From assembly GCA_044342325.1 (NCBI GenBank), contig JBIIPZ010000008.1:24208-88207 (forward strand): a stretch of 64,000 bases of DNA, written 5' to 3'. The DNA is from Terrimicrobiaceae bacterium (GTDB taxonomy: Bacteria > Verrucomicrobiota > Verrucomicrobiia > Chthoniobacterales > Terrimicrobiaceae). How positions within the stretch are numbered: position 1 is the first letter of the stretch; each line of letters opens with the position of its first letter. Shown here piece after piece: positions 4,996 through 64,000 of the stretch. The translations under genes and the position numbers were made by a program. The notes beneath the pieces are model-generated. The model had not been told where the DNA came from. It searched no databases and saw only the letters and a list, made by a program, of their open reading frames with translations.

Positions 4996-5832
4996 TCAGG
5001 GAGTGCCGCTTTGTTCGGCAGGTTTTTTCTTCGCTTTTGCGAAAGGTAGGCGCAGAGGCACCTCCCCGAGGCGTTTGGGTTTGAGGTGCGGTTTGTTGCC
5101 GAGTGCGTCTCGCTGATAAAGATACTCCGAGAGTGTTGCCGATATTTCGTGCGCTGTGCGCCTTGTGTCGAAGCTCACGCCGCTGCGAATGCCATCCACC
5201 GCGTTGAATAGCGAGGTCAGAGCCATGGGGCCGCTCACTGGCAGTGTGACAATTCCGCCTATGCCTTGGGAAATGTTCGATCCTCCTGTGGTTTCGAAGG
5301 CGAGAAATTTGTTTGGAACCGGCCCTGATAATTCCTGAACGACGACGATCGTTTCCATTTTGGTTCCTCCGGCACCCAGCCCCAGTGTGCTGCGGAGGAG
5401 GCGGCTACCTTGGTTGATTCGTGCGAATCGGCCCGTGAGCACCCAGTAGTTTCCGCGTGGCAGGCCGTCCTCTGGGGAAATGACGCGGGCCGGAGCGACA
5501 TGAGTGCCGAGTTTTTTGACCAGATGCCGGTTCAGGCGGGCTTGGAGCTCCGCTCGGAAGGTTTCGAAGTCCTTGCCCGTTCTATCCACGCGCAGCCCGT
5601 CCTCGTTCAGGGCAAAGGGAAGGATGAGGATTTCTTCGGGCGCGACGCTCGGAGGATTGGCGCTCGTTTGGCGGATATTGTCCACGCTCACCGAGGCACA
5701 TGATGCGAGGCAGAAGGACAATCCTGCGAAGATCAGCCGGGCAGCCCGACAGAGTGAGGTTTTTAGGCGGATTGGAATGGCGTCGAAATTCAACAGGCGG
5801 GAGAGGGAATCAGATGAGGCCGCCGTCCTCAA
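4996..5832 (-). CDS. DUF4410-like lipoprotein (start uncertain)
   Basis: Lipobox-like LASC after a hydrophobic stretch; GRFARINQGSRLLRSTLGLGAGGTK is typical of DUF4410. Confidence 0.65.
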   Translation of the reverse strand: MRTAASSDSLSRLLNFDAIPIRLKTSLCRAARLIFAGLSFCLASCASVSVDNIRQTSANPPSVAPEEILILPFALNEDGLRVDRTGKDFETFRAELQARLNRHLVKKLGTHVAPARVISPEDGLPRGNYWVLTGRFARINQGSRLLRSTLGLGAGGTKMETIVVVQELSGPVPNKFLAFETTGGSNISQGIGGIVTLPVSGPMALTSLFNAVDGIRSGVSFDTRRTAHEISATLSEYLYQRDALGNKPHLKPKRLGEVPLRLPFAKAKKKPAEQSGTP

Positions 5833-5885
5833 GACTCAAAAGCCAGGAGTTGAACCGCAGGCCATCATCACGCATCGTGGCGCGT

Positions 5886-7142
5886 ATGAAATTTTCAGCA
5901 CTCGGTCAGAATCTCTCCGGCGGTAGCGGCATCGAGAGCCTCATGGACGATTTGGGCAAAGCGCTTTCAGGAGTCGGTCCCGCCCCGCTTATGCTGGGAG
6001 GGGGAAATCCCGCGCACATCCCGGAAATGGAGGCTGTCTGGAAAGCGCGCATGGAACAAATCACAGCCGACCCTGCCGTGCTGCGGCGCACGCTGGCGAT
6101 CTACGATCCGCCTTGTGGCAATGCGGGTGTGCTGGAGTCCCTCGCCGGTTTGCTTCGCAACGAATTCGGGTGGCCGGTAGGCCCGGAGAATATTGCGGTG
6201 ACGCCCGGTGGGCAGACGGCATTTTACTTTCTTTTCAATCTTTTCGGTGGCCGCCGTGCCGATGGAACGCCCGGTCGCATTCTTTTCCCGCTCATGCCGG
6301 AATACATCGGCTACGCAAATCAGGCCCTCGAGCCGGGAATGTTCGCCGGAGTCCAGCCCGGCATTTCGCGCACCAGTCCGCATCGCTTCAAATACCATGT
6401 GGATTTTAAAAATCTGAATCCGGGTTCTGATATTGCCGCGATGTGTGTCTCGAGGCCCACGAATCCCAGCGGGAACCTGATCTCGGATGCCGAGCTTCGG
6501 CATCTCGCAGATATTGCCGCTCAGCGTGAGATCCCGCTCATCATCGACAATGCATACGGCTGGCCATTTCCTGGAATCGTTTTTGGCGAGGTCAAGCCGC
6601 TCTGGAGCGGTCAAACCGTGCATGTGATGAGCCTGTCGAAATTCGGCCTGCCCGGCACGCGAACCGCTTTTGTGGTGGCTCCGCCCGAGGTAGCTGCCGC
6701 CGTTTCGTCCATGATGGCGGTGAGTGGTCTCGCGAATGGAAACTTCGGTCAGGCGATCGCGGGTCCGCTCATTGCCAGTGGCGAAATCGTTCGCCTCAGC
6801 CGCGAGATCATTCGGCCCTTCTATCTTCGAAAACGAGACGCCGCACTCGAGGCGATCGCGGAATTTTTCCCGGTGGATGCCCCATATGCCCTCCATGAAA
6901 GTGAAGGCGCCCTCTTCCTTTGGCTCTGGCTGGATGGAGCAAAAAAGACCTCCCGCGAGCTGTATGAAATCCTCAAGAAACGCGGAGTTCTCGTCGTGCC
7001 GGGGGATTATTTCTTTTTCGGCTTGCCGGACGAGGATTGGCGCCACCGCCGGGAATGCCTCCGCATCTCATTCGCCATGAGCGATGCGGAGGTGCGTGCG
7101 GGGCTCAAAATCATCGGCGAGGAAGTCGCGCAAGCCTTCTGA
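5886..7142 (+). CDS. avtA: Valine--pyruvate transaminase
   Basis: MKFSALG...SGIESLMDDLG...MLGGGNPAHIP, PEYIGY, SRPTNPSGN, IDNAYG and SLSKFGLPG (PLP lysine). Confidence 0.9.
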   Translation: MKFSALGQNLSGGSGIESLMDDLGKALSGVGPAPLMLGGGNPAHIPEMEAVWKARMEQITADPAVLRRTLAIYDPPCGNAGVLESLAGLLRNEFGWPVGPENIAVTPGGQTAFYFLFNLFGGRRADGTPGRILFPLMPEYIGYANQALEPGMFAGVQPGISRTSPHRFKYHVDFKNLNPGSDIAAMCVSRPTNPSGNLISDAELRHLADIAAQREIPLIIDNAYGWPFPGIVFGEVKPLWSGQTVHVMSLSKFGLPGTRTAFVVAPPEVAAAVSSMMAVSGLANGNFGQAIAGPLIASGEIVRLSREIIRPFYLRKRDAALEAIAEFFPVDAPYALHESEGALFLWLWLDGAKKTSRELYEILKKRGVLVVPGDYFFFGLPDEDWRHRRECLRISFAMSDAEVRAGLKIIGEEVAQAF

Positions 7143-7149
7143 GTCCCCA

Positions 7150-7186
7150 AAAAAAGGCGTTTCGCATGTGCTGCGAAACGCCTTTT
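7150..7186. terminator. Bidirectional intrinsic terminator
   Basis: AAAA-GGCGTTTCGCA-tgtgc-TGCGAAACGCC-TTTT between convergent genes. Confidence 0.85.
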
Positions 7187-7204
7187 CGTTAAGTTGATTA
7201 TGTA

Positions 7205-7624
7205 TTATCCTTGGTGGTTCGTGCCGGAGAGAATCCGCCAGTTGCCGCTTTCCAGTTTTTGGAACTGGCCAAGCTTTTTGCCTGTGGTGCTGAACCATAC
7301 ATGAACTTGTGCAACCGGTTTCTCAACTTTTTCAGCAAGTTCCTTGACCCCTGCGCCCACTTCACCGGCGGCTTGCAGGAGTTTAATGATTTGCTCTTGC
7401 ATAAAGCCTTTTGGCGAGCGTGGTTTCTTTGGGCCCTTGGCTACTCCACGGCGTTTTTTGATGGATTTTGCGCGGAGGATGCGGGTTGCCGCAAGGACTT
7501 CTCCAGAGGCGAGTCCCGCGATTTCTTTTTCCACTTGTGCCACCTTGGCCAGCAGGGTTTCTTTTTTCTTGGTAAGAGAAAGAAGTGCCGTCAAAGTTTG
7601 TGTATTGATATCTGTTACTTTCAT
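7205..7624 (-). CDS. Small basic putative DNA-binding (nucleoid-associated-like) protein
   Basis: N-terminal coiled coil, K/R-rich linker and C-terminal winged-helix-like segment (QIIKLLQAAGEVGAGVKELAEKVEKPVAQVHVWFSTTGKK). Confidence 0.65.
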   Translation of the reverse strand: MKVTDINTQTLTALLSLTKKKETLLAKVAQVEKEIAGLASGEVLAATRILRAKSIKKRRGVAKGPKKPRSPKGFMQEQIIKLLQAAGEVGAGVKELAEKVEKPVAQVHVWFSTTGKKLGQFQKLESGNWRILSGTNHQG

Positions 7625-28874: not shown

Positions 28875-29261
28875 TTATTCCAAACCACGCTCGGAGAGGT
28901 CACCCTCGTCGAGCCCGAGGTAGTGGCCGAGTTCATGGAGGAATGTGATGCGCACCTCCTCGCGATAGGCGTCCTCCTCGGCCTCACACATATCCCAGAG
29001 ATTTCCCAGCCACAGCACGATCCTCGGCATTTGAGGGCTTGCTGGATCCGTGGCATCCGCGCCTTCGAAGAGGCCGAGTTGGTCGCTATCCACGCCATCC
29101 GCCTCATGTGCCGTCGAGGGGAATTCCTCCAGCACCATGGCCACCTCGCTCAGAGCGTCGCGAAGTGGTGCAGGTAGCTCCGAGCGGGTTTTTTCGATTT
29201 CCTCGGTGGCCACTTCCATCAGGTAGGCAAATGGCGCGTCGGGATTGTTTTCAAAGTTCAT
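28875..29261 (-). CDS. Minimal zincin metallopeptidase family (Zincin_1/DUF1025)
   Basis: LGLFEG...RIVLW...ITFLHELGHYLGLDEGDL (HExxH). Confidence 0.88.
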   Translation of the reverse strand: MNFENNPDAPFAYLMEVATEEIEKTRSELPAPLRDALSEVAMVLEEFPSTAHEADGVDSDQLGLFEGADATDPASPQMPRIVLWLGNLWDMCEAEEDAYREEVRITFLHELGHYLGLDEGDLSERGLE

Positions 29262-29381
29262 GGCCTTTTTTCGGAGCCATCGGCTCAGACGCAGCACACA
29301 TTCAGTGGCTCATCGAAAAAAGCCAGTAATTCTGTTTTCAAAAGCGGATGCCTTAAACTAACGTGCGCACTTGATTTCGTT

Positions 29382-30041
29382 ATGGGCCCCGAACACGAGT
29401 TTATTGAAAAAAGCCTCGAACTTTGCCAGAGCGGAGACATGGAAGAACTTGCTCGCGTCTATTTAGAGCTTCTTCCATTGCTTCAAGGATACCTCCAAAA
29501 CCTTGGCGCCTCTTCGCTCGAGGCGGAAACGCTGGCGGTCGAAGTTCTGAGTGATTGTTTGGTTGGAACTCTGAGTCGCCCGCCTCTGATCAATAAATGC
29601 CAGGGGCGCAGTTCTCTCGCCACCTGGATGAGTGCTGTGGCCAGAAACCGATACTATGATTTTATGCGTGGACAAAAAATGGATCGCGCCATCGCCTCGG
29701 ATCTTCAAGAGGCCTTGGTCGCAGGGGATCAGTGGGTTGAAACCCGCGTTCAAGATGAACACCTTTTCGAGGCTTTGCGCTCGGCGTTGGTTCGGGCTTT
29801 TCAAGCCTTATCAGCCACTGATGCCGTTCTCCTCCACTTGGTGCATGGCCACAAGGTGGATCAACGCATTCTCGCGAGATCACTTGGTTGGTCGGATACC
29901 AAGATGAGCCGCCATCTCGCATCCCTCCGATGTAATCTGAAGCTCCATGTCCAATCCTTGCTCCGCGATGTGGAGAGAGGCGATCCGCCAAGCTGGGAGG
30001 ACCTGATTCAGGTTTGCGGTCAAATGGTTGAACCACTCTGA
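29382..30041 (+). CDS. ECF-type sigma-70 factor (divergent)
   Basis: Region 2-like GRSSLATWMSAVARNRYYDFMR; region 4-like ALSATDAVLLHLVHGHKVDQRILARSLGWSDTKMSRHL. Confidence 0.75.
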   Translation: MGPEHEFIEKSLELCQSGDMEELARVYLELLPLLQGYLQNLGASSLEAETLAVEVLSDCLVGTLSRPPLINKCQGRSSLATWMSAVARNRYYDFMRGQKMDRAIASDLQEALVAGDQWVETRVQDEHLFEALRSALVRAFQALSATDAVLLHLVHGHKVDQRILARSLGWSDTKMSRHLASLRCNLKLHVQSLLRDVERGDPPSWEDLIQVCGQMVEPL

Positions 30042-30047
30042 AAAACA

Positions 30048-30320
30048 ATGGCTACTCTTTCCTTTGATTCCACCCCAGACGATGCGCCGTTCCAGTTTCT
30101 TCTCGATATGTTTCTGCGCGCCGAGTCATTGGCTTGTTTTGCTGGTCACTCTGACGAAGAAGAAATCAACGGAACTATGCAGGAAATGGCGGCGGGTCGC
30201 CTCGCCCCGGTCGATGTGCAGGAGCTTTTCGGTAAGCTCAGGTCGGATCCCTCCGCCGTGGCCCGCCTCGCCTCACTGCTCCAAGAATCCAGGGGTGGCG
30301 ATCGGGAGGCTGAGGAATGA
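30048..30320 (+). CDS. Small soluble acidic helical protein (candidate anti-sigma)
   Basis: 90 aa, 6 nt after the sigma gene stop, ATGA-coupled to the next gene, no TM segment. Confidence 0.55.
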   Translation: MATLSFDSTPDDAPFQFLLDMFLRAESLACFAGHSDEEEINGTMQEMAAGRLAPVDVQELFGKLRSDPSAVARLASLLQESRGGDREAEE

Positions 30321-30952
30321 AGGGCGATAACTCGCGTTACATCATTCCGGCAGCCGCATTGCCCGATGGCATCCAACTCCCGCAGGGAACCGGCCTGGTG
30401 ATGGATGCTTGGATGGACGCGCAAGCTGGTGCGATCTGCCGGGGCGAGTGGAGTGGATGGCCCTGCGCCGGGGGATTTGATTTGCTGCGCGATGCGGTGA
30501 CTGCCACCGATGCGGATGACGGAGTGCTCTGGTTGGTGGACGATGTGAAACGCGAGCTGCGTCCCTGCTTCAGCATCGGGCAGCATTGTGAAATCTTTCT
30601 CAAAGAGATTCGTCAACCGCTCACCTCGGGCTTGATCAGCATGGTTTTTTTCACCGAGGACTCGATCTGCGAAGCTGAAGTTAGACGCCGGAGCGAGTAT
30701 TGCCCGGATGTCGATTCGCGTCTCGGCGCGAAGACAAAAGCCATGATTGCGGTCCCGATCTTTTTTGCACAGCGGTGCAGGGGAGTTTTTTCGGCCGTTC
30801 TCTTCGAGGTTAGTTCCCAAGTGACGCATAAGGAGGCCTTCCTACACTCGGATTTTGAAACGCTCTCTCAGGCGGCCACGCTCTGGGGCGAGTTGATGGA
30901 TTCGCAACTCGCTGGAGTCGGAATACAAGGCGGCGCAAACTCGGGTTTATGA
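30317..30952 (+). CDS. Stand-alone GAF-domain protein
   Basis: GVLWLVD...ELRPCF...QPLTSGLISMVF...TKAMIAVPIFF...GVFSAV...FETLSQAA is a GAF-type strand/helix pattern. Confidence 0.75.
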   Translation: MKGDNSRYIIPAAALPDGIQLPQGTGLVMDAWMDAQAGAICRGEWSGWPCAGGFDLLRDAVTATDADDGVLWLVDDVKRELRPCFSIGQHCEIFLKEIRQPLTSGLISMVFFTEDSICEAEVRRRSEYCPDVDSRLGAKTKAMIAVPIFFAQRCRGVFSAVLFEVSSQVTHKEAFLHSDFETLSQAATLWGELMDSQLAGVGIQGGANSGL

Positions 30953-31713
30953 GTGGAGTCATTCGCTGGGAGGACTTCCCGGATGCCGTGCGGCGTGGTG
31001 ACGGGCGAGGGGTGAGGATTGCGGTGCTTGATTCCGGCATCGAAAGGCTTCATCCGGGATTTGAAGGGGCTCACTTTGATGACGATCTTTGCTTTGCGAC
31101 TACGGAAAATGGCGAGGCTCCAAATGATGCCGGCGGGATGGATTTCTTTGGTCATGGAACGGCTGTGGCATCGGTGCTTCTTCAGACCGCCCCCGCTGTC
31201 ACGATCGGCAGCTTCCGCGTTCTTGGCGGCGAGGCTTACGGTCGGGATGAAATCATTCGCCGGGCCGCATTGGAGGCCATAGCGCGTGGATACCACATCA
31301 TCCACTGCAGCTTTGGCGCGAGCGGGTCGCCATTCACCGTGATGTCGTTCAAATCGTGGATCGATGCCGCGTATCTAGCCGGCGTTCATATTGTCGCGGC
31401 CTGCAATAATGGCGGATCATCTGTGCGTGTTTGGCCAGCGCATTTTTCAAGCGTGGTCGCGGTGGATTCCGCCGCTGGGGTTTCCAGCGGGCAAATCCAG
31501 AGGCGTGCTGGATCGCTTGTGGAGTTCGCTACTCTGGGAGGCGTTCGGGCGCGTTTGCCTTGGAAGGATAAAACGATGCGCAACATTGCGGGAACGAGCT
31601 TTTCCGCCCCAGTGGCCACGGGCCTCATGGCCAGGATTCTCTCCATCCATCCCGACATTCATCCCGACCAGATGAAGATGATTCTGCGGGAAATCGCCGA
31701 GCCTGCGGAGTAG
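30949..31713 (+). CDS. Minimal cytoplasmic S8 (subtilisin-like) serine peptidase
   Basis: IAVLDSGI (Asp), GHGTAVA (His), AACNN (oxyanion Asn), GTSFSAP (Ser); no signal peptide or propeptide. Confidence 0.88.
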   Translation: MSGVIRWEDFPDAVRRGDGRGVRIAVLDSGIERLHPGFEGAHFDDDLCFATTENGEAPNDAGGMDFFGHGTAVASVLLQTAPAVTIGSFRVLGGEAYGRDEIIRRAALEAIARGYHIIHCSFGASGSPFTVMSFKSWIDAAYLAGVHIVAACNNGGSSVRVWPAHFSSVVAVDSAAGVSSGQIQRRAGSLVEFATLGGVRARLPWKDKTMRNIAGTSFSAPVATGLMARILSIHPDIHPDQMKMILREIAEPAE

Positions 31714-31743: not shown

Positions 31744-33321
31744 CTACTGGATCGAGGGAGGAACGGGGCCGGTTTTGGGAACGAGGCGGAGAATGACCGT
31801 GCGGTTGCGCGCAGCGGCATTTGGGACATCGCTCGAGAAAGGCTGGGTCATGCCGCCGGTCGAACTCACAAGCAGGCGCTCTGCGGGAAAGTTGCTATCC
31901 TCGCGCAAGACTTCCGTGGCGGCCACAGCACGGCGAAGTCCGAGCGTGTAGTTATCGCGGAATGGTGACTGCTGGCGCATGGCAGTGCCGTCCGTCTGGC
32001 CTTCGATGATAAGCCAGAAGTCCGGAGCGTTCTTGGCGATCAATGCTCCTGTGAGAGCAAGTTGCTCGCGGCCTTTTTTATCCACTTTCAAGCCTGAAGC
32101 GAAGATGCCTTCTTCAAACTTGATGCGTATCTCGTTTTTGTTGCTGGTGATCACGCAGCCGGGGAGTTCCATGAGGCTTGGGAGCAGGCGGTTGATTGCT
32201 TCCAGATTCTGGTCGGGAGCAGGCGCTGCCGCAACAGGGGCAATCGGTGCGGTGCGGGCGGGCACTTCCGGCGTCAGGGTCACAGGCTTCGGTGTCGGAG
32301 CCTCTACAAGTGCGACTGGCGCAGGCGTAGGTGCAGGTGTGGAAATCGTCTCGGTCACAGCGGCAGGCATCGGCGCGGAGGCGGAGATGTTTGCCTGAGA
32401 TGCGATCGGCTCATCGTTGTCGTTATGTTTATAAACAACCTGAAATTCCGGCAACACGGGCATGGTGGGTTGCGGCTTAGGCTGGGCGAGCGGCGAGGGG
32501 GCCGGTTCGCCGGGATTGAGGAGTTCTTTGATGCCGAATCCTGCGGCGCCAAGAACGACCAGAATCACAACCCAGTAAGCGAGTTTCCGAAAGGCGTTCA
32601 TGCCTCCACCGGAGCGGTCGCCATTGCGAGAGGGAGGAAGCGGAACGGCTCCGGGCTTGTTGTAGGGACGCGATATCTCCACGGCATCGGTGTCGTGTGA
32701 GGTCTCGCGGTTTGTTTCGCGGAATGCCGGGAGGGCAGATGCTGAGGGCTGAACAGCTTTACGAATCTTCGGTTCTCTCGGTGCAGGAGCCGCTTTGGAA
32801 GATTTTTTGCCCTGCGATTTTTCAGAGATTTGGGCCATGAGCTCTAGGGCGGAGGTAGAGCGAGCCGGTGCCTTGCGGGCGGCTTTAGCTGCGGGTTTGG
32901 CAGGAGCCTCTTCTTCGTCTGGTTGCTCGATCACTTCGCTGACACCGCTGAATTCGTCAATCTCACGCACTTCGCCGACGGAATCGAAATCGTCATCACC
33001 GACCGAGCCAACCATTTCCTCGACCACTGGCTTGATTTGCCGAGCCACGGTGGACTCGGCTTTTTGAAGCTTGGCGGGAAAATCGACCTCGGCTGGTTCG
33101 CCCACTGATTCTTCAGGCAGATTGGTGGCTTCGCCATCGCGTTCGCGCATCCAATTTTCCAGTGCGAACCGGTTGAACCGCCACTGGCGTCCGACTTTCA
33201 CTCCGGGCAATTGCCCCTCGCTGCAGAGTTTCAAGAGTGTGGACTTGGGCATTTTGAGGAAGACTGCCGCCTCGTCGCCGTTCATCACTTCATTTTGGGG
33301 AGTTGTTTGATCGTTTGCCAT
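31744..33321 (-). CDS. Excisionase-type HTH + single TM + OmpA/MotB-like C-terminal domain protein
   Basis: VMNGDEAAVFLKMPKSTLLKLCSEGQLPGVKVGRQWRF; TM LAYWVVILVVLGAAGFGI; IIEGQTD...NYTLGLRRA...ARNRTVIL. Confidence 0.8.
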   Translation of the reverse strand: MANDQTTPQNEVMNGDEAAVFLKMPKSTLLKLCSEGQLPGVKVGRQWRFNRFALENWMRERDGEATNLPEESVGEPAEVDFPAKLQKAESTVARQIKPVVEEMVGSVGDDDFDSVGEVREIDEFSGVSEVIEQPDEEEAPAKPAAKAARKAPARSTSALELMAQISEKSQGKKSSKAAPAPREPKIRKAVQPSASALPAFRETNRETSHDTDAVEISRPYNKPGAVPLPPSRNGDRSGGGMNAFRKLAYWVVILVVLGAAGFGIKELLNPGEPAPSPLAQPKPQPTMPVLPEFQVVYKHNDNDEPIASQANISASAPMPAAVTETISTPAPTPAPVALVEAPTPKPVTLTPEVPARTAPIAPVAAAPAPDQNLEAINRLLPSLMELPGCVITSNKNEIRIKFEEGIFASGLKVDKKGREQLALTGALIAKNAPDFWLIIEGQTDGTAMRQQSPFRDNYTLGLRRAVAATEVLREDSNFPAERLLVSSTGGMTQPFSSDVPNAAARNRTVILRLVPKTGPVPPSIQ

Positions 33322-33428
33322 GCCAGATTTGTGGGGAGCGAACCTGCAATAAAAAGCAGGCGGATGCAAACATTGCTTTTCGGGTTTGTCGTTGCCGGAT
33401 GCGGATTTTTTCGAGAATGCTTGAGGAA

Positions 33429-63132: not shown

Positions 63133-64000
63133 ATGGCTATCCGTATTTTCAATTCCAAAGCAGAATTCGACTCTGTCAAAGCCACGCTGGCAGGTGATCC
63201 CGGAGCCGACACGCTTTCGTTTTCCCTCGCCACGGCATCGGTTGTTCTAGCCGATACGGACTTTCTGGGGATGAACTCCATCACCAACGCAACCACCAGA
63301 TTCGAAGCGCTTGCTCTCTCAAACTACGCGGATCAAGTCACTCTGGCAGGCAATGCCTTTAATGTAGGTATTGTGTCGGTTTTTGGTGGAACCAATAGTG
63401 ATCGTATCGACGCATCCGCATATACTTCGGCTTTGAATGTCACACTCTCTGGGGGATTTGGCAATGACACGCTGCTCGGAGGAGATGGGGCGGATAGTTT
63501 GGATGGAGGAGCAGACAATGATAGCCTTTTCGGCGGAGGCGGGAATGATACGCTGAGCGGAGGGGCTGGGGCAGATTTTTTGGATGGAGGGTTTGGTGTT
63601 AATAGCCTGGTTGGTGGAGACGGCAATGACTACTACACCATTTCCAGCTCCTCAGATACAATTGTCGAGGCTTCAGGCGCTGGAACTGGCACGGATTCAG
63701 TCCTTGCCAATGTGGCTGGCGTCATTTTGGCATCCAATACCGAATGGCTCATTCTCGGGGCTGGAGCATCTAGCGGAGCGGGAAATTCTCTAGCAAACAC
63801 ACTTGTTGGTCAGGCAGGAACAAGTGATTCGTTGTTCGGTGATGCTGGAAACGATAGTTTGTTCGGTAACGATGGGAACAACACGCTGGACGGAGGGGCA
63901 GACAACGACACATTGGTATCTGGAAGCGGAACCGATAGTTTGATTGGTGGGGATGGGAATGACAGCCTCGTGGGAGGCACAGGGATAGACACATTCAGCG
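63133..64000 (+). CDS. RTX/hemolysin-type Ca2+-binding repeat protein (runs off the window end; not in the ORF track)
   Basis: Open from ATG 63133 (MAIRIFNSK...) to the end of the window; many GGxGxDxL nonapeptides (GGFGNDTLL, GGDGADSLD, GGGGNDTLS, GGDGNDSLV). Confidence 0.9.
   Translation, partial: MAIRIFNSKAEFDSVKATLAGDPGADTLSFSLATASVVLADTDFLGMNSITNATTRFEALALSNYADQVTLAGNAFNVGIVSVFGGTNSDRIDASAYTSALNVTLSGGFGNDTLLGGDGADSLDGGADNDSLFGGGGNDTLSGGAGADFLDGGFGVNSLVGGDGNDYYTISSSSDTIVEASGAGTGTDSVLANVAGVILASNTEWLILGAGASSGAGNSLANTLVGQAGTSDSLFGDAGNDSLFGNDGNNTLDGGADNDTLVSGSGTDSLIGGDGNDSLVGGTGIDTFS

Follow-up and report, generated by a model that had tools for sequence, protein, structure and literature searches.

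A four-gene operon located at positions 29382–31713 of the 64-kb window (the whole stretch of 64,000 nucleotides analysed, from contig JBIIPZ010000008.1 of a Terrimicrobiaceae bacterium) represents a real and conserved genetic module that is apparently undescribed. The operon encodes a sigma factor of the extracytoplasmic function (ECF) type, a 90-aa protein (p90), a stand-alone GAF protein and a subtilase of the peptidase family S8. Judging from the comparison of gene neighbourhoods, the GAF–S8 pair is the core of this module. We propose that the operon constitutes a cytoplasmic proteolytic switch which is gated by a second messenger and controls the activity of the ECF-type sigma factor, a proposal whose chance of being correct we regard as somewhat short of even.

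The first gene of the operon (29382–30041, + strand) encodes the sigma factor of 219 aa. It is separated by a 6-nt gap (30042–30047) from the gene of p90 (30048–30320, +), an acidic, soluble protein of four helices, which is a candidate both for a class I-like anti-sigma factor without zinc and for the substrate of the protease. The third gene (30317–30952, +) encodes the GAF protein of 211 aa, the proposed sensor or regulatory subunit of the protease, and the fourth gene (30949–31713, +) encodes the S8 subtilase of 254 aa, which consists of the catalytic domain only and is predicted to be cytoplasmic. The last two genes are coupled to the genes preceding them by ATGA start/stop overlaps at 30317 and 30949. 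A simple 19-residue Kyte–Doolittle scan, run without a dedicated predictor, revealed no transmembrane segment and no signal peptide in the four proteins; their hydropathy maxima lie between 1.05 and 1.39 and their N-termini are polar. The initial annotation of the operon had described four tightly coupled genes encoding a divergent ECF sigma factor, a small protein, a stand-alone GAF protein and a 254-aa S8 peptidase with an intact D/H/N/S catalytic set and neither a signal peptide nor a propeptide, with no transmembrane segment in any of the products. All of these features were borne out by the gene spacing and the hydropathy values given above and by the family comparisons given below.

The conservation of the operon was assessed with relatives of the S8 subtilase. 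One genome per species (185,579 species) was scanned with subfamily-specific motifs, and the best 80 of 267 matches were kept. These 80 relatives belong to three phyla, with 72 found in Verrucomicrobiota, seven in Gemmatimonadota and one in Terriglobales. Their neighbourhoods were analysed as six-frame open reading frames (ORFs) with iterated hidden Markov models built from the window and three distant loci. In all 56 loci that extend at least 2.5 kb to either side of the S8 gene (full loci), a GAF gene is located directly upstream of the S8 gene; in locus L048 it was recognised by inspection. Within 2.5 kb, 25 of the full loci contain both a sigma factor gene and a gene of the p90 family, six contain the p90-family gene only and one the sigma factor gene only. 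When both are present, they lie upstream on the same strand in 17 loci, downstream of the S8 gene with the p90-family gene on the minus and the sigma factor gene on the plus strand in five, and downstream with both on the minus strand in three. In genome G030 the sigma–p90 and GAF–S8 pairs are divergent, an arrangement exemplified by L013. At least four gene orders relative to GAF–S8 are found in all. The reshuffling of the gene order with proximity kept argues for a functional relationship rather than for inherited synteny. In a quick maximum-likelihood tree of the S8 sequences, most clades contain sigma-linked loci (51 of the 86 rows). Judging from these comparisons, the arrangement recurs across genera and phyla more than is expected by chance.

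The phyletic distributions of the S8 and p90 families match as well. The S8 subfamily is present in 12 of 41 related genomes, namely in the genome of the window, in 10 of 24 others of the same genus and in one of another family, and a sample of 400 other genomes of the phylum added only two more, found as a short open frame. Of the 12 S8-positive genomes, 11 gave a strong match to the p90 family (E ≤ 1e-15), and the twelfth has a cut contig. None of the 29 S8-negative genomes gave a strong match, and three of them gave weak ones. Together with second copies found in G009 and G010, the weak matches amount to five paralogues of the p90 family. Four of them (in G003, G008, G009 and G020) are located just downstream of a sigma factor gene of the same family, while the copy in G010 has no sigma factor gene in the stretch examined. 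Neither a GAF nor an S8 gene was found near the five paralogues within the stretches examined. Since paralogous sigma–p90 pairs exist with no GAF–S8 nearby, the gene content indicates that sigma factor and p90 form an independent pair, as would be expected for a sigma factor with its anti-sigma factor, and that GAF–S8 is a second, separable pair. The sigma–p90 pairs without GAF–S8 are L130 (G008), L131 (G020), L132 (G003) and L129 (G009); those of G008 and G020 lie between an adenosine deaminase gene and the gene of a CCA-adding enzyme, that is, between housekeeping flanks. No clean junction between presence and absence of the module was found in the same-genus genomes G008 and G013, which lack the module and in which synteny is lost, so that no indel could be demonstrated. 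The S8 protein of G010 falls into a different clade from that of the window, which suggests two independent acquisitions in one genus.

The sigma factor of the operon taken as a single sequence remains below the curated cut-offs, both against Pfam Sigma70_r2 (E 1.4e-4, 22 bits; cut-off 24) and against the NCBIfam ECF superfamily model TIGR02937 (1.1e-9, 38.2 bits; cut-off 42.9). The profile of its family (43 members), on the other hand, matches solved ECF sigma factors, namely AlgU (8z6g_B, 7.8e-14), 6in7_B and RpoE (1or7, 3.7e-12). These matches span profile positions 19–216 and thus cover both domains. Because the single sequence misses the cut-offs while the family profile matches ECF sigma factors, the protein is, at the level of sequence, a divergent member of the ECF type (group 4) with domains sigma2 and sigma4 only. 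According to the re-classification of ECF sigma factors (PMC7826278), sigma factors whose domains miss the Pfam models were left out. This may be the reason why such a sigma group goes undescribed there.

No family in Pfam, NCBIfam or PADLOC was found for p90, and its family profile gave nothing significant against the sequences in PDB. The p90 family was found in at least 482 representative clusters among 1.84 billion representatives when an E of up to 1e-3 was allowed, and in 237 with the limit set at 1e-10. Its members are stand-alone proteins of about 80 aa; nearly all of the 150 matches listed are 68–123 aa long with no extra domains. The protein is a conserved, acidic helical bundle without a variable core, and its AlphaFold model (predicted local distance difference test, pLDDT, 75) contains helices at residues 10–23, 36–48, 54–64 and 68–89. 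Residues 36–90 were compared with 48,161 PDB representative chains by a procedure independent of Foldseek, and the three best matches are all cytoplasmic anti-sigma domains, those of RsiW (Z 6.3, root-mean-square deviation 2.0 Å, 55 residues), MucA (Z 6.2) and RslA (Z 5.7), with 53–55 residues aligned across the three, although such values are modest and a Z below 8 can arise by chance in helical folds. RskA and PupR follow at ranks 14 and 44. Foldseek searches with the p90 model gave no match at E ≤ 0.001.

The p90 protein was rejected as a zinc-binding anti-sigma (ZAS) factor. It contains one Cys and one His, and the zinc-binding motif H-x3-C-x2-C is absent. Pfam searches of 52 p90-family proteins found no family common to more than six members and every match was weak; zf-HC2 was matched by two of the 52 (best E 0.027), and a zf-HC2 search of the relatives gave two matches in 13 genomes. 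Clusters that look like p90 are unnamed and exclusively verrucomicrobial, and a zf-HC2 cluster at rank 22 (score 0.79) is a mere lead. Zinc-less anti-sigma domains exist. The proposal of the initial annotation that the 90-aa protein is the anti-sigma factor is favoured by the modestly anti-sigma-like fold of the model and by the sigma-paired paralogues, but p90 is not of the ZAS type and matches no known family. We therefore describe p90 as anti-sigma-like rather than as a protein proven to belong to the family of class I anti-sigma domains.

The GAF protein matches Pfam GAF_2 with E 1.9e-4 as a single sequence, which is below the cut-off. The profile of its family (78 members) is clearly of the GAF kind and matches first GAF domains that bind cyclic nucleoside monophosphates (cNMP), with the cAMP-binding GAF of CyaB2 (1ykd, 2.4e-21) at the top, followed by 5w10 (1.5e-14), PDE2A (9e-11) and then PDE10A, PDE6C and PDE5A. 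The structural model of the protein (pLDDT 83.9) gives 212 PDB matches at E ≤ 0.001, the top ones being GAF domains, and the best Foldseek match is the GAF domain of Lcd1 with cAMP (5w10, 3.7e-9). By sequence profile and predicted fold, the protein is a GAF domain with cNMP-binding GAFs as its nearest kin, and from this family resemblance its ligand is probably a cyclic nucleotide. Fused GAF–S8 proteins or longer S8 forms were not found at E ≤ 1e-20 among 8000 candidates, which is weak evidence.

The S8 protein matches the Pfam family PF00082 with 1e-23 (84.5 bits; cut-off 21.8) and begins 18 residues before the Pfam domain. It contains the Asp-His-Ser triad of subtilases in the expected order together with the oxyanion Asn. 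The four residues, D28, H69, N154 and S217, are invariant in six sequences and are kept in 86–87 of 87 relatives, from which an active protease is predicted. The S8 family aligns to residues 22–253 of mature subtilisin BPN′/Carlsberg, and for this reason we regard the protein as free of an I9 propeptide. The intracellular serine protease 7y6m_C is among its PDB matches. The initial annotation had assumed that subtilases normally need an inhibitory propeptide. This assumption has to be relaxed, since cytoplasmic subtilases without a classical propeptide, such as the intracellular serine protease and QhpE, are known; a cytoplasmic subtilase lacking the propeptide is thus by itself not new. Several assignments of the S8 protein to known systems were rejected. 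QhpE (NF049966) is the best NCBIfam model (1.2e-24), with 86.9 bits against a cut-off of 165, and no qhp genes are present, the neighbours being ribE and genes of a zincin-like, an HTH-OmpA and a ThrB protein. The PADLOC model ‘subtilase’ matches at 1.2e-21, which reflects generic subtilase similarity only; two of the other operon proteins have no PADLOC match, and the sigma factor has only a weak CasR-like one (E 0.023). As for the IetAS system, IetS matches residues 8–78 of the S8 protein only (7.7e-9) and no IetA-like ATPase partner is seen among the other operon proteins.

A link to cyclic nucleotides is also seen in the neighbourhoods of GAF–S8. Class III nucleotide cyclases are encoded in 14 of 85 loci (15 ORFs). 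In eight of these, comprising all seven loci of Gemmatimonadota and the Terriglobales locus, the cyclase gene is directly upstream and co-directional. The cyclase domain occurs in CHASE2-cyclase, HAMP-cyclase and GAF-cyclase architectures and at the C-terminus of TPR-S proteins, some of which carry a RyR domain at their N-terminus. The genome of the window encodes four cyclases elsewhere, including a CHASE2-cyclase and a dCache-cyclase. Other neighbours of GAF–S8 are ATP-binding cassette (ABC) exporters, encoded directly downstream of the S8 gene in nine loci, of which only L108 has a p90-family gene beside GAF–S8, as well as HtrA-like proteases, CHAT-TPR proteins (L049, L086 and L105) and paired caspase–Sel1 proteins.

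Some of these neighbourhoods have arrangements of their own. In the Gemmatimonadota loci L069, L082, L084, L107 and L109, an operon of CHASE2-cyclase, GAF and S8 genes is followed by two large ORFs on the opposite strand. For L069, L084 and L107, the loci covered by Pfam scans, the products of these ORFs were identified as proteins of the caspase type (Peptidase_C14), one of them carrying Sel1 repeats. In L105 a 1142-aa CHAT-TPR protein is encoded in place of the caspase ORFs. As read from the gene content, the combination of S8 with caspase or CHAT proteins in Gemmatimonadota may represent a protease cascade. L089 and L097 contain a larger divergent cluster, in which one strand encodes an HtrA-like protease, an ABC exporter, the sigma factor and the p90-family protein, and the opposite strand encodes an ABC exporter together with GAF and S8. 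In L094 (2936–4550, Chthoniobacterales) two p90-family genes flank the sigma factor gene, in the order p90 family, sigma, p90 family, GAF, S8. In L015 of G010 a gene for a 621-aa TPR-S (PF20308) protein (5698–7563, −) replaces the GAF gene between the p90-family gene and the S8 gene.

The proposed switch is based on the observed gene coupling, domain identities, catalytic residues, cNMP-type GAF, anti-sigma-like fold, co-occurrence and cyclase link. In the first step, p90 would keep the sigma factor inactive as a soluble, zinc-less anti-sigma factor. The GAF protein would form a complex with the propeptide-less S8 subtilase and hold it inactive or off-target until cAMP or cGMP binds; in the organism of the window the cyclic nucleotide would come from sensor cyclases encoded elsewhere, such as the CHASE2- or dCache-cyclases. 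The activated subtilase would then cut p90, plausibly in the low-confidence linker at residues 24–35 between the N-terminal helix and the three-helix bundle. In the last step, the freed sigma factor would transcribe its targets, probably including its own operon. All protein–protein contacts in this scheme, as well as the ligand, the cleavage and the regulon, are what we infer. The initial annotation had suggested that the GAF protein senses a small molecule and gates a protease which cleaves the small anti-sigma factor. This idea remains plausible and is partly supported, with the amendments that GAF–S8 is the core of the module, that the ligand is probably a cyclic nucleotide and that the concept has a precedent in CRISPR-linked systems. 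More tentatively still, GAF–S8 could represent a new and widespread class of cyclic-nucleotide-activated proteases, the first gated by cAMP or cGMP in bacteria. Such proteases would be fed by membrane or TPR-S cyclases and have modular outputs, namely the release of dedicated ECF-type sigma factors by cutting a new family of minimal soluble anti-sigma factors, as proposed for the window, and, in other lineages, the activation of caspase/CHAT proteins or exporters.

Several observations weigh against the switch. The initial annotation had named conservation of all four genes across genomes as a check of the idea. The genes are indeed linked across lineages, in 32 of the 56 full loci, in several orders and with matching phyletic profiles, but they do not form one obligate unit: in 24 of the 56 full loci neither the sigma factor gene nor the p90-family gene lies within 2.5 kb. 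It follows that, within the family, the subtilase must act on further or different targets. Loci without sigma factor and p90 carry ABC exporters, HtrA, CHAT or caspase proteins instead. Genome G386 encodes GAF–S8 and no p90-family protein at all, and paralogous sigma–p90 pairs work without GAF–S8 in other species. The G010 locus, the sole exception of its kind seen, has the sigma factor, the p90-family protein, S8 and the TPR-S protein with no GAF protein. No cyclase gene adjoins the locus of the window. On the side of the individual proteins, the GAF ligand is deduced from family resemblance, the anti-sigma similarity of p90 (Z about 6) is modest, and the zf-HC2 matches in its family are few and weak.

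The 24 loci lacking sigma factor and p90 favour an alternative in which the order of control is reversed. The sigma/anti-sigma pair would then do no more than control the transcription of GAF–S8, and the cNMP-gated protease would be the effector, which leaves p90 uncleaved. As in conflict or abortive-infection systems, this effector would either degrade proteins other than p90, of cellular or foreign origin, or activate the caspase/CHAT proteins encoded nearby. The occurrence of GAF–S8 beside CHAT-TPR, paired caspase (C14)–Sel1 and WD40 proteins and TPR-S/RyR cyclases, which contain domains typical of conflict systems, fits this explanation. So do the PADLOC ‘subtilase’ match, the patchy distribution of S8 (10 of 24 same-genus genomes and two in the sample of 400) and the two S8 clades within one genus. 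A soluble 80-aa anti-sigma factor with no sensor of its own, however, needs an inactivating input, and GAF and S8 are the sole conserved candidates beside p90. The p90-family gene also stays beside GAF–S8 in the six full loci with no adjacent sigma factor gene, and the strong p90-family matches are confined to the S8-positive ones among the 41 genomes. Furthermore, the operon of the window has housekeeping flanks and no CRISPR-like array is found in the 64 kb. We consider the reversed order unlikely, and of the alternatives it is the one to be taken most seriously.

Soluble anti-sigma factors are often under partner-switching control, and the genes of p90 and the GAF protein adjoin each other and are translationally coupled. 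It is thus conceivable that the ligand-bound GAF protein acts as an anti-anti-sigma factor which binds p90 and frees the sigma factor with no cleavage, and that the subtilase merely clears or resets the components. We regard this as improbable: the S8 protein with its intact catalytic set is as invariant as the GAF protein, GAF–S8 persists where the p90-family protein is absent, and no STAS, kinase or phosphatase partners were found in the scanned neighbourhoods. The least probable explanation, which we hardly credit, regards the subtilase as a leader peptidase that works in the cytoplasm like QhpE or LanP, p90 as a precursor peptide that is processed and exported, and the sigma factor as the regulator of the cluster; QhpE as the best NCBIfam model and the ABC exporters downstream of S8 in nine loci speak for it, but the QhpE score is far below the cut-off, the operon of the window has no modification enzymes or exporter, p90, a conserved acidic bundle of anti-sigma-like fold, contains one Cys and lacks a variable core, p90-family proteins pair with the sigma factor alone in other genomes, and only one of the nine exporter loci has a p90-family gene beside GAF–S8.

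The operon is flanked by housekeeping genes, with ribE (+) and the zincin-like gene (PF06262, −) on one side and the HTH_17/OmpA-like gene (−) and thrB (+) on the other. The 84 bp that separate the sigma factor gene from the divergent zincin-like gene contain a conserved non-coding block (29314–29362, +), a putative promoter or operator for these four genes. When the 140 nt 5′ of the sigma factor gene were aligned for the window together with 13 loci of the same genus, an A-rich/TTCTRTTTTCAA block was found to be conserved, with a TTAAACTA-like block following some 17 nt downstream. The 16-nt core of the conserved upstream sequence occurs once in its own genome, at the operon site. A regulon search with this core was discarded; it matched the own site only and a control pattern matched equally often. 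A scan of the operon found no sigma-70 promoter-like site, the upstream block has no match to the sigma-70 consensus, and terminator-like sites of the operon were not above shuffled controls. Metatranscriptome contigs from two lake or freshwater runs cover parts of all four genes and bridge the sigma/p90 and p90/GAF junctions. They are 90–98% alike to the operon and thus originate from related strains. The contigs are a weak hint of operon expression, since DNA carry-over is possible and contigs cannot show a transcript.

The zincin-like gene (28875–29297, −) encodes a 140-aa metallopeptidase (PF06262, 8.1e-16) and is divergent from the sigma factor gene. It is syntenic within the genus and is present in the S8-lacking genomes G008, G013 and G020; other lineages do not show it next to the module. 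On the other side, a gene converging on the S8 gene (31744–33369, −) and syntenic in same-genus loci encodes a 541-aa protein with an N-terminal excisionase-type helix-turn-helix domain (HTH_17, 8.6e-12), a long Pro/Ala-rich middle part and a C-terminal OmpA/MotB-like domain (1.7e-5, below the cut-off). The fusion of a DNA-binding domain to a peptidoglycan-binding domain is an odd combination. At the end of the window (63436–63995), degenerate direct repeats of 27, 54 and 81 nt encode Gly/Asp-rich nonapeptide-like units, which resemble calcium-binding repeats of the RTX type.

The release of ECF sigma factors is usually ascribed to membrane proteolysis, to partner switching or to a conformational change of the anti-sigma factor. 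To our knowledge, the only characterised messenger-activated cytoplasmic proteases that free an ECF sigma factor are CRISPR-linked, namely the CalpL/CalpT/CalpS system and Craspase. If the proposed switch operates, ECF sigma factors would have a further route of activation outside CRISPR systems, one that runs through a second messenger in the cytoplasm, and ordinary cAMP or cGMP signalling would be connected with both proteolysis and transcription. Being chromosomal, independent of CRISPR and assembled from other components, namely a cNMP-type GAF, a bare subtilase and a new anti-sigma-like family of 80-aa proteins, the module would also imply that the logic of sigma factor release evolved more than once. 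A function would be assigned to the unannotated p90 family, and it would be explained how a propeptide-less subtilase stays harmless in the cytoplasm. Being small and soluble, the module could further serve synthetic biology as an orthogonal switch leading from a small molecule through a protease to a sigma factor.

The components of the operon resemble those of several known systems. CyaB2, Lcd1 and the phosphodiesterases PDE2, 5, 6 and 10 give the best profile and fold matches of the GAF protein; their GAF domains are fused to the regulated enzyme (cyclase, diguanylate cyclase or phosphodiesterase), whereas the GAF protein of the operon stands alone and is encoded together with a protease. 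QhpE and the Bacillus intracellular serine proteases share with the subtilase an S8 domain of about 220–320 aa without a signal peptide or classical I9 propeptide. The S8 protein differs from QhpE in its score below the cut-off and the lack of qhp genes. An invariant GAF partner and a sigma/anti-sigma context are, as far as we know, not features of either protease. In the classical class I pairs RsiW/SigW, MucA/AlgU and RslA/SigL, whose sigma factors are set free by regulated intramembrane proteolysis, as in the operon, an ECF-type sigma factor gene is followed by a gene whose product contains a cytoplasmic anti-sigma domain or, in the operon, modestly resembles one, and AlgU (8z6g_B) and MucA (8z6g_A), the top match of the sigma factor and among the top matches of p90, respectively, come from one PDB entry. 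Unlike RsiW, MucA and RslA, p90 has no transmembrane segment, periplasmic domain or zinc motif, and the candidate protease is a cytoplasmic subtilase instead of the site-1/site-2 membrane proteases.

Literature searches found no description of a GAF–subtilase pair or of an S8-linked ECF sigma factor. The accessible texts of the conflict-systems paper (PMC7159879) and of the ECF re-classification (PMC7826278) do not mention the module; the supplements of both might list the context. The statement of the initial annotation that no characterised module has this composition thus stands as far as the literature found is concerned, but the logic has precedents in CalpL/CalpT/CalpS and Craspase/Csx30, as reported for these systems. 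Craspase, a complex of gRAMP/Cas7-11 and TPR-CHAT, cleaves Csx30, which is linked to RpoE. The likeness to the operon would be a looser one, in that a regulated cytoplasmic protease cleaves a small partner in a module holding an ECF sigma factor. Activation there comes from a target RNA that the Cas effector binds, and a caspase-like CHAT domain acts as the protease; the operon has no cas genes. In the CalpL/CalpT/CalpS system, as reported (bioRxiv 10.1101/2024.05.08.593097), cyclic tetra-adenylate (cA4) activates the SAVED-Lon protease CalpL, the anti-sigma factor CalpT is cleaved and the ECF-like sigma factor CalpS is released. Membership of the operon in this system was rejected on account of its S8 and GAF proteins and of the missing CRISPR-like repeat array, none being found in the 64-kb window; the genome was not searched for cas10. 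The operon has an S8 subtilase where CalpL has Lon, its proposed sensor is not a fused SAVED domain but a cNMP-type GAF encoded as a polypeptide of its own, the likely messenger is cAMP or cGMP from class III cyclases instead of cA4 from Cas10, and p90, in the place of CalpT, has no detectable sequence relation to known families. What the operon would have in common with CalpL/CalpT/CalpS, by analogy with the published outline, is the all-cytoplasmic three-part logic in which a messenger activates a protease, the protease cuts a soluble anti-sigma factor and the sigma factor is set free.

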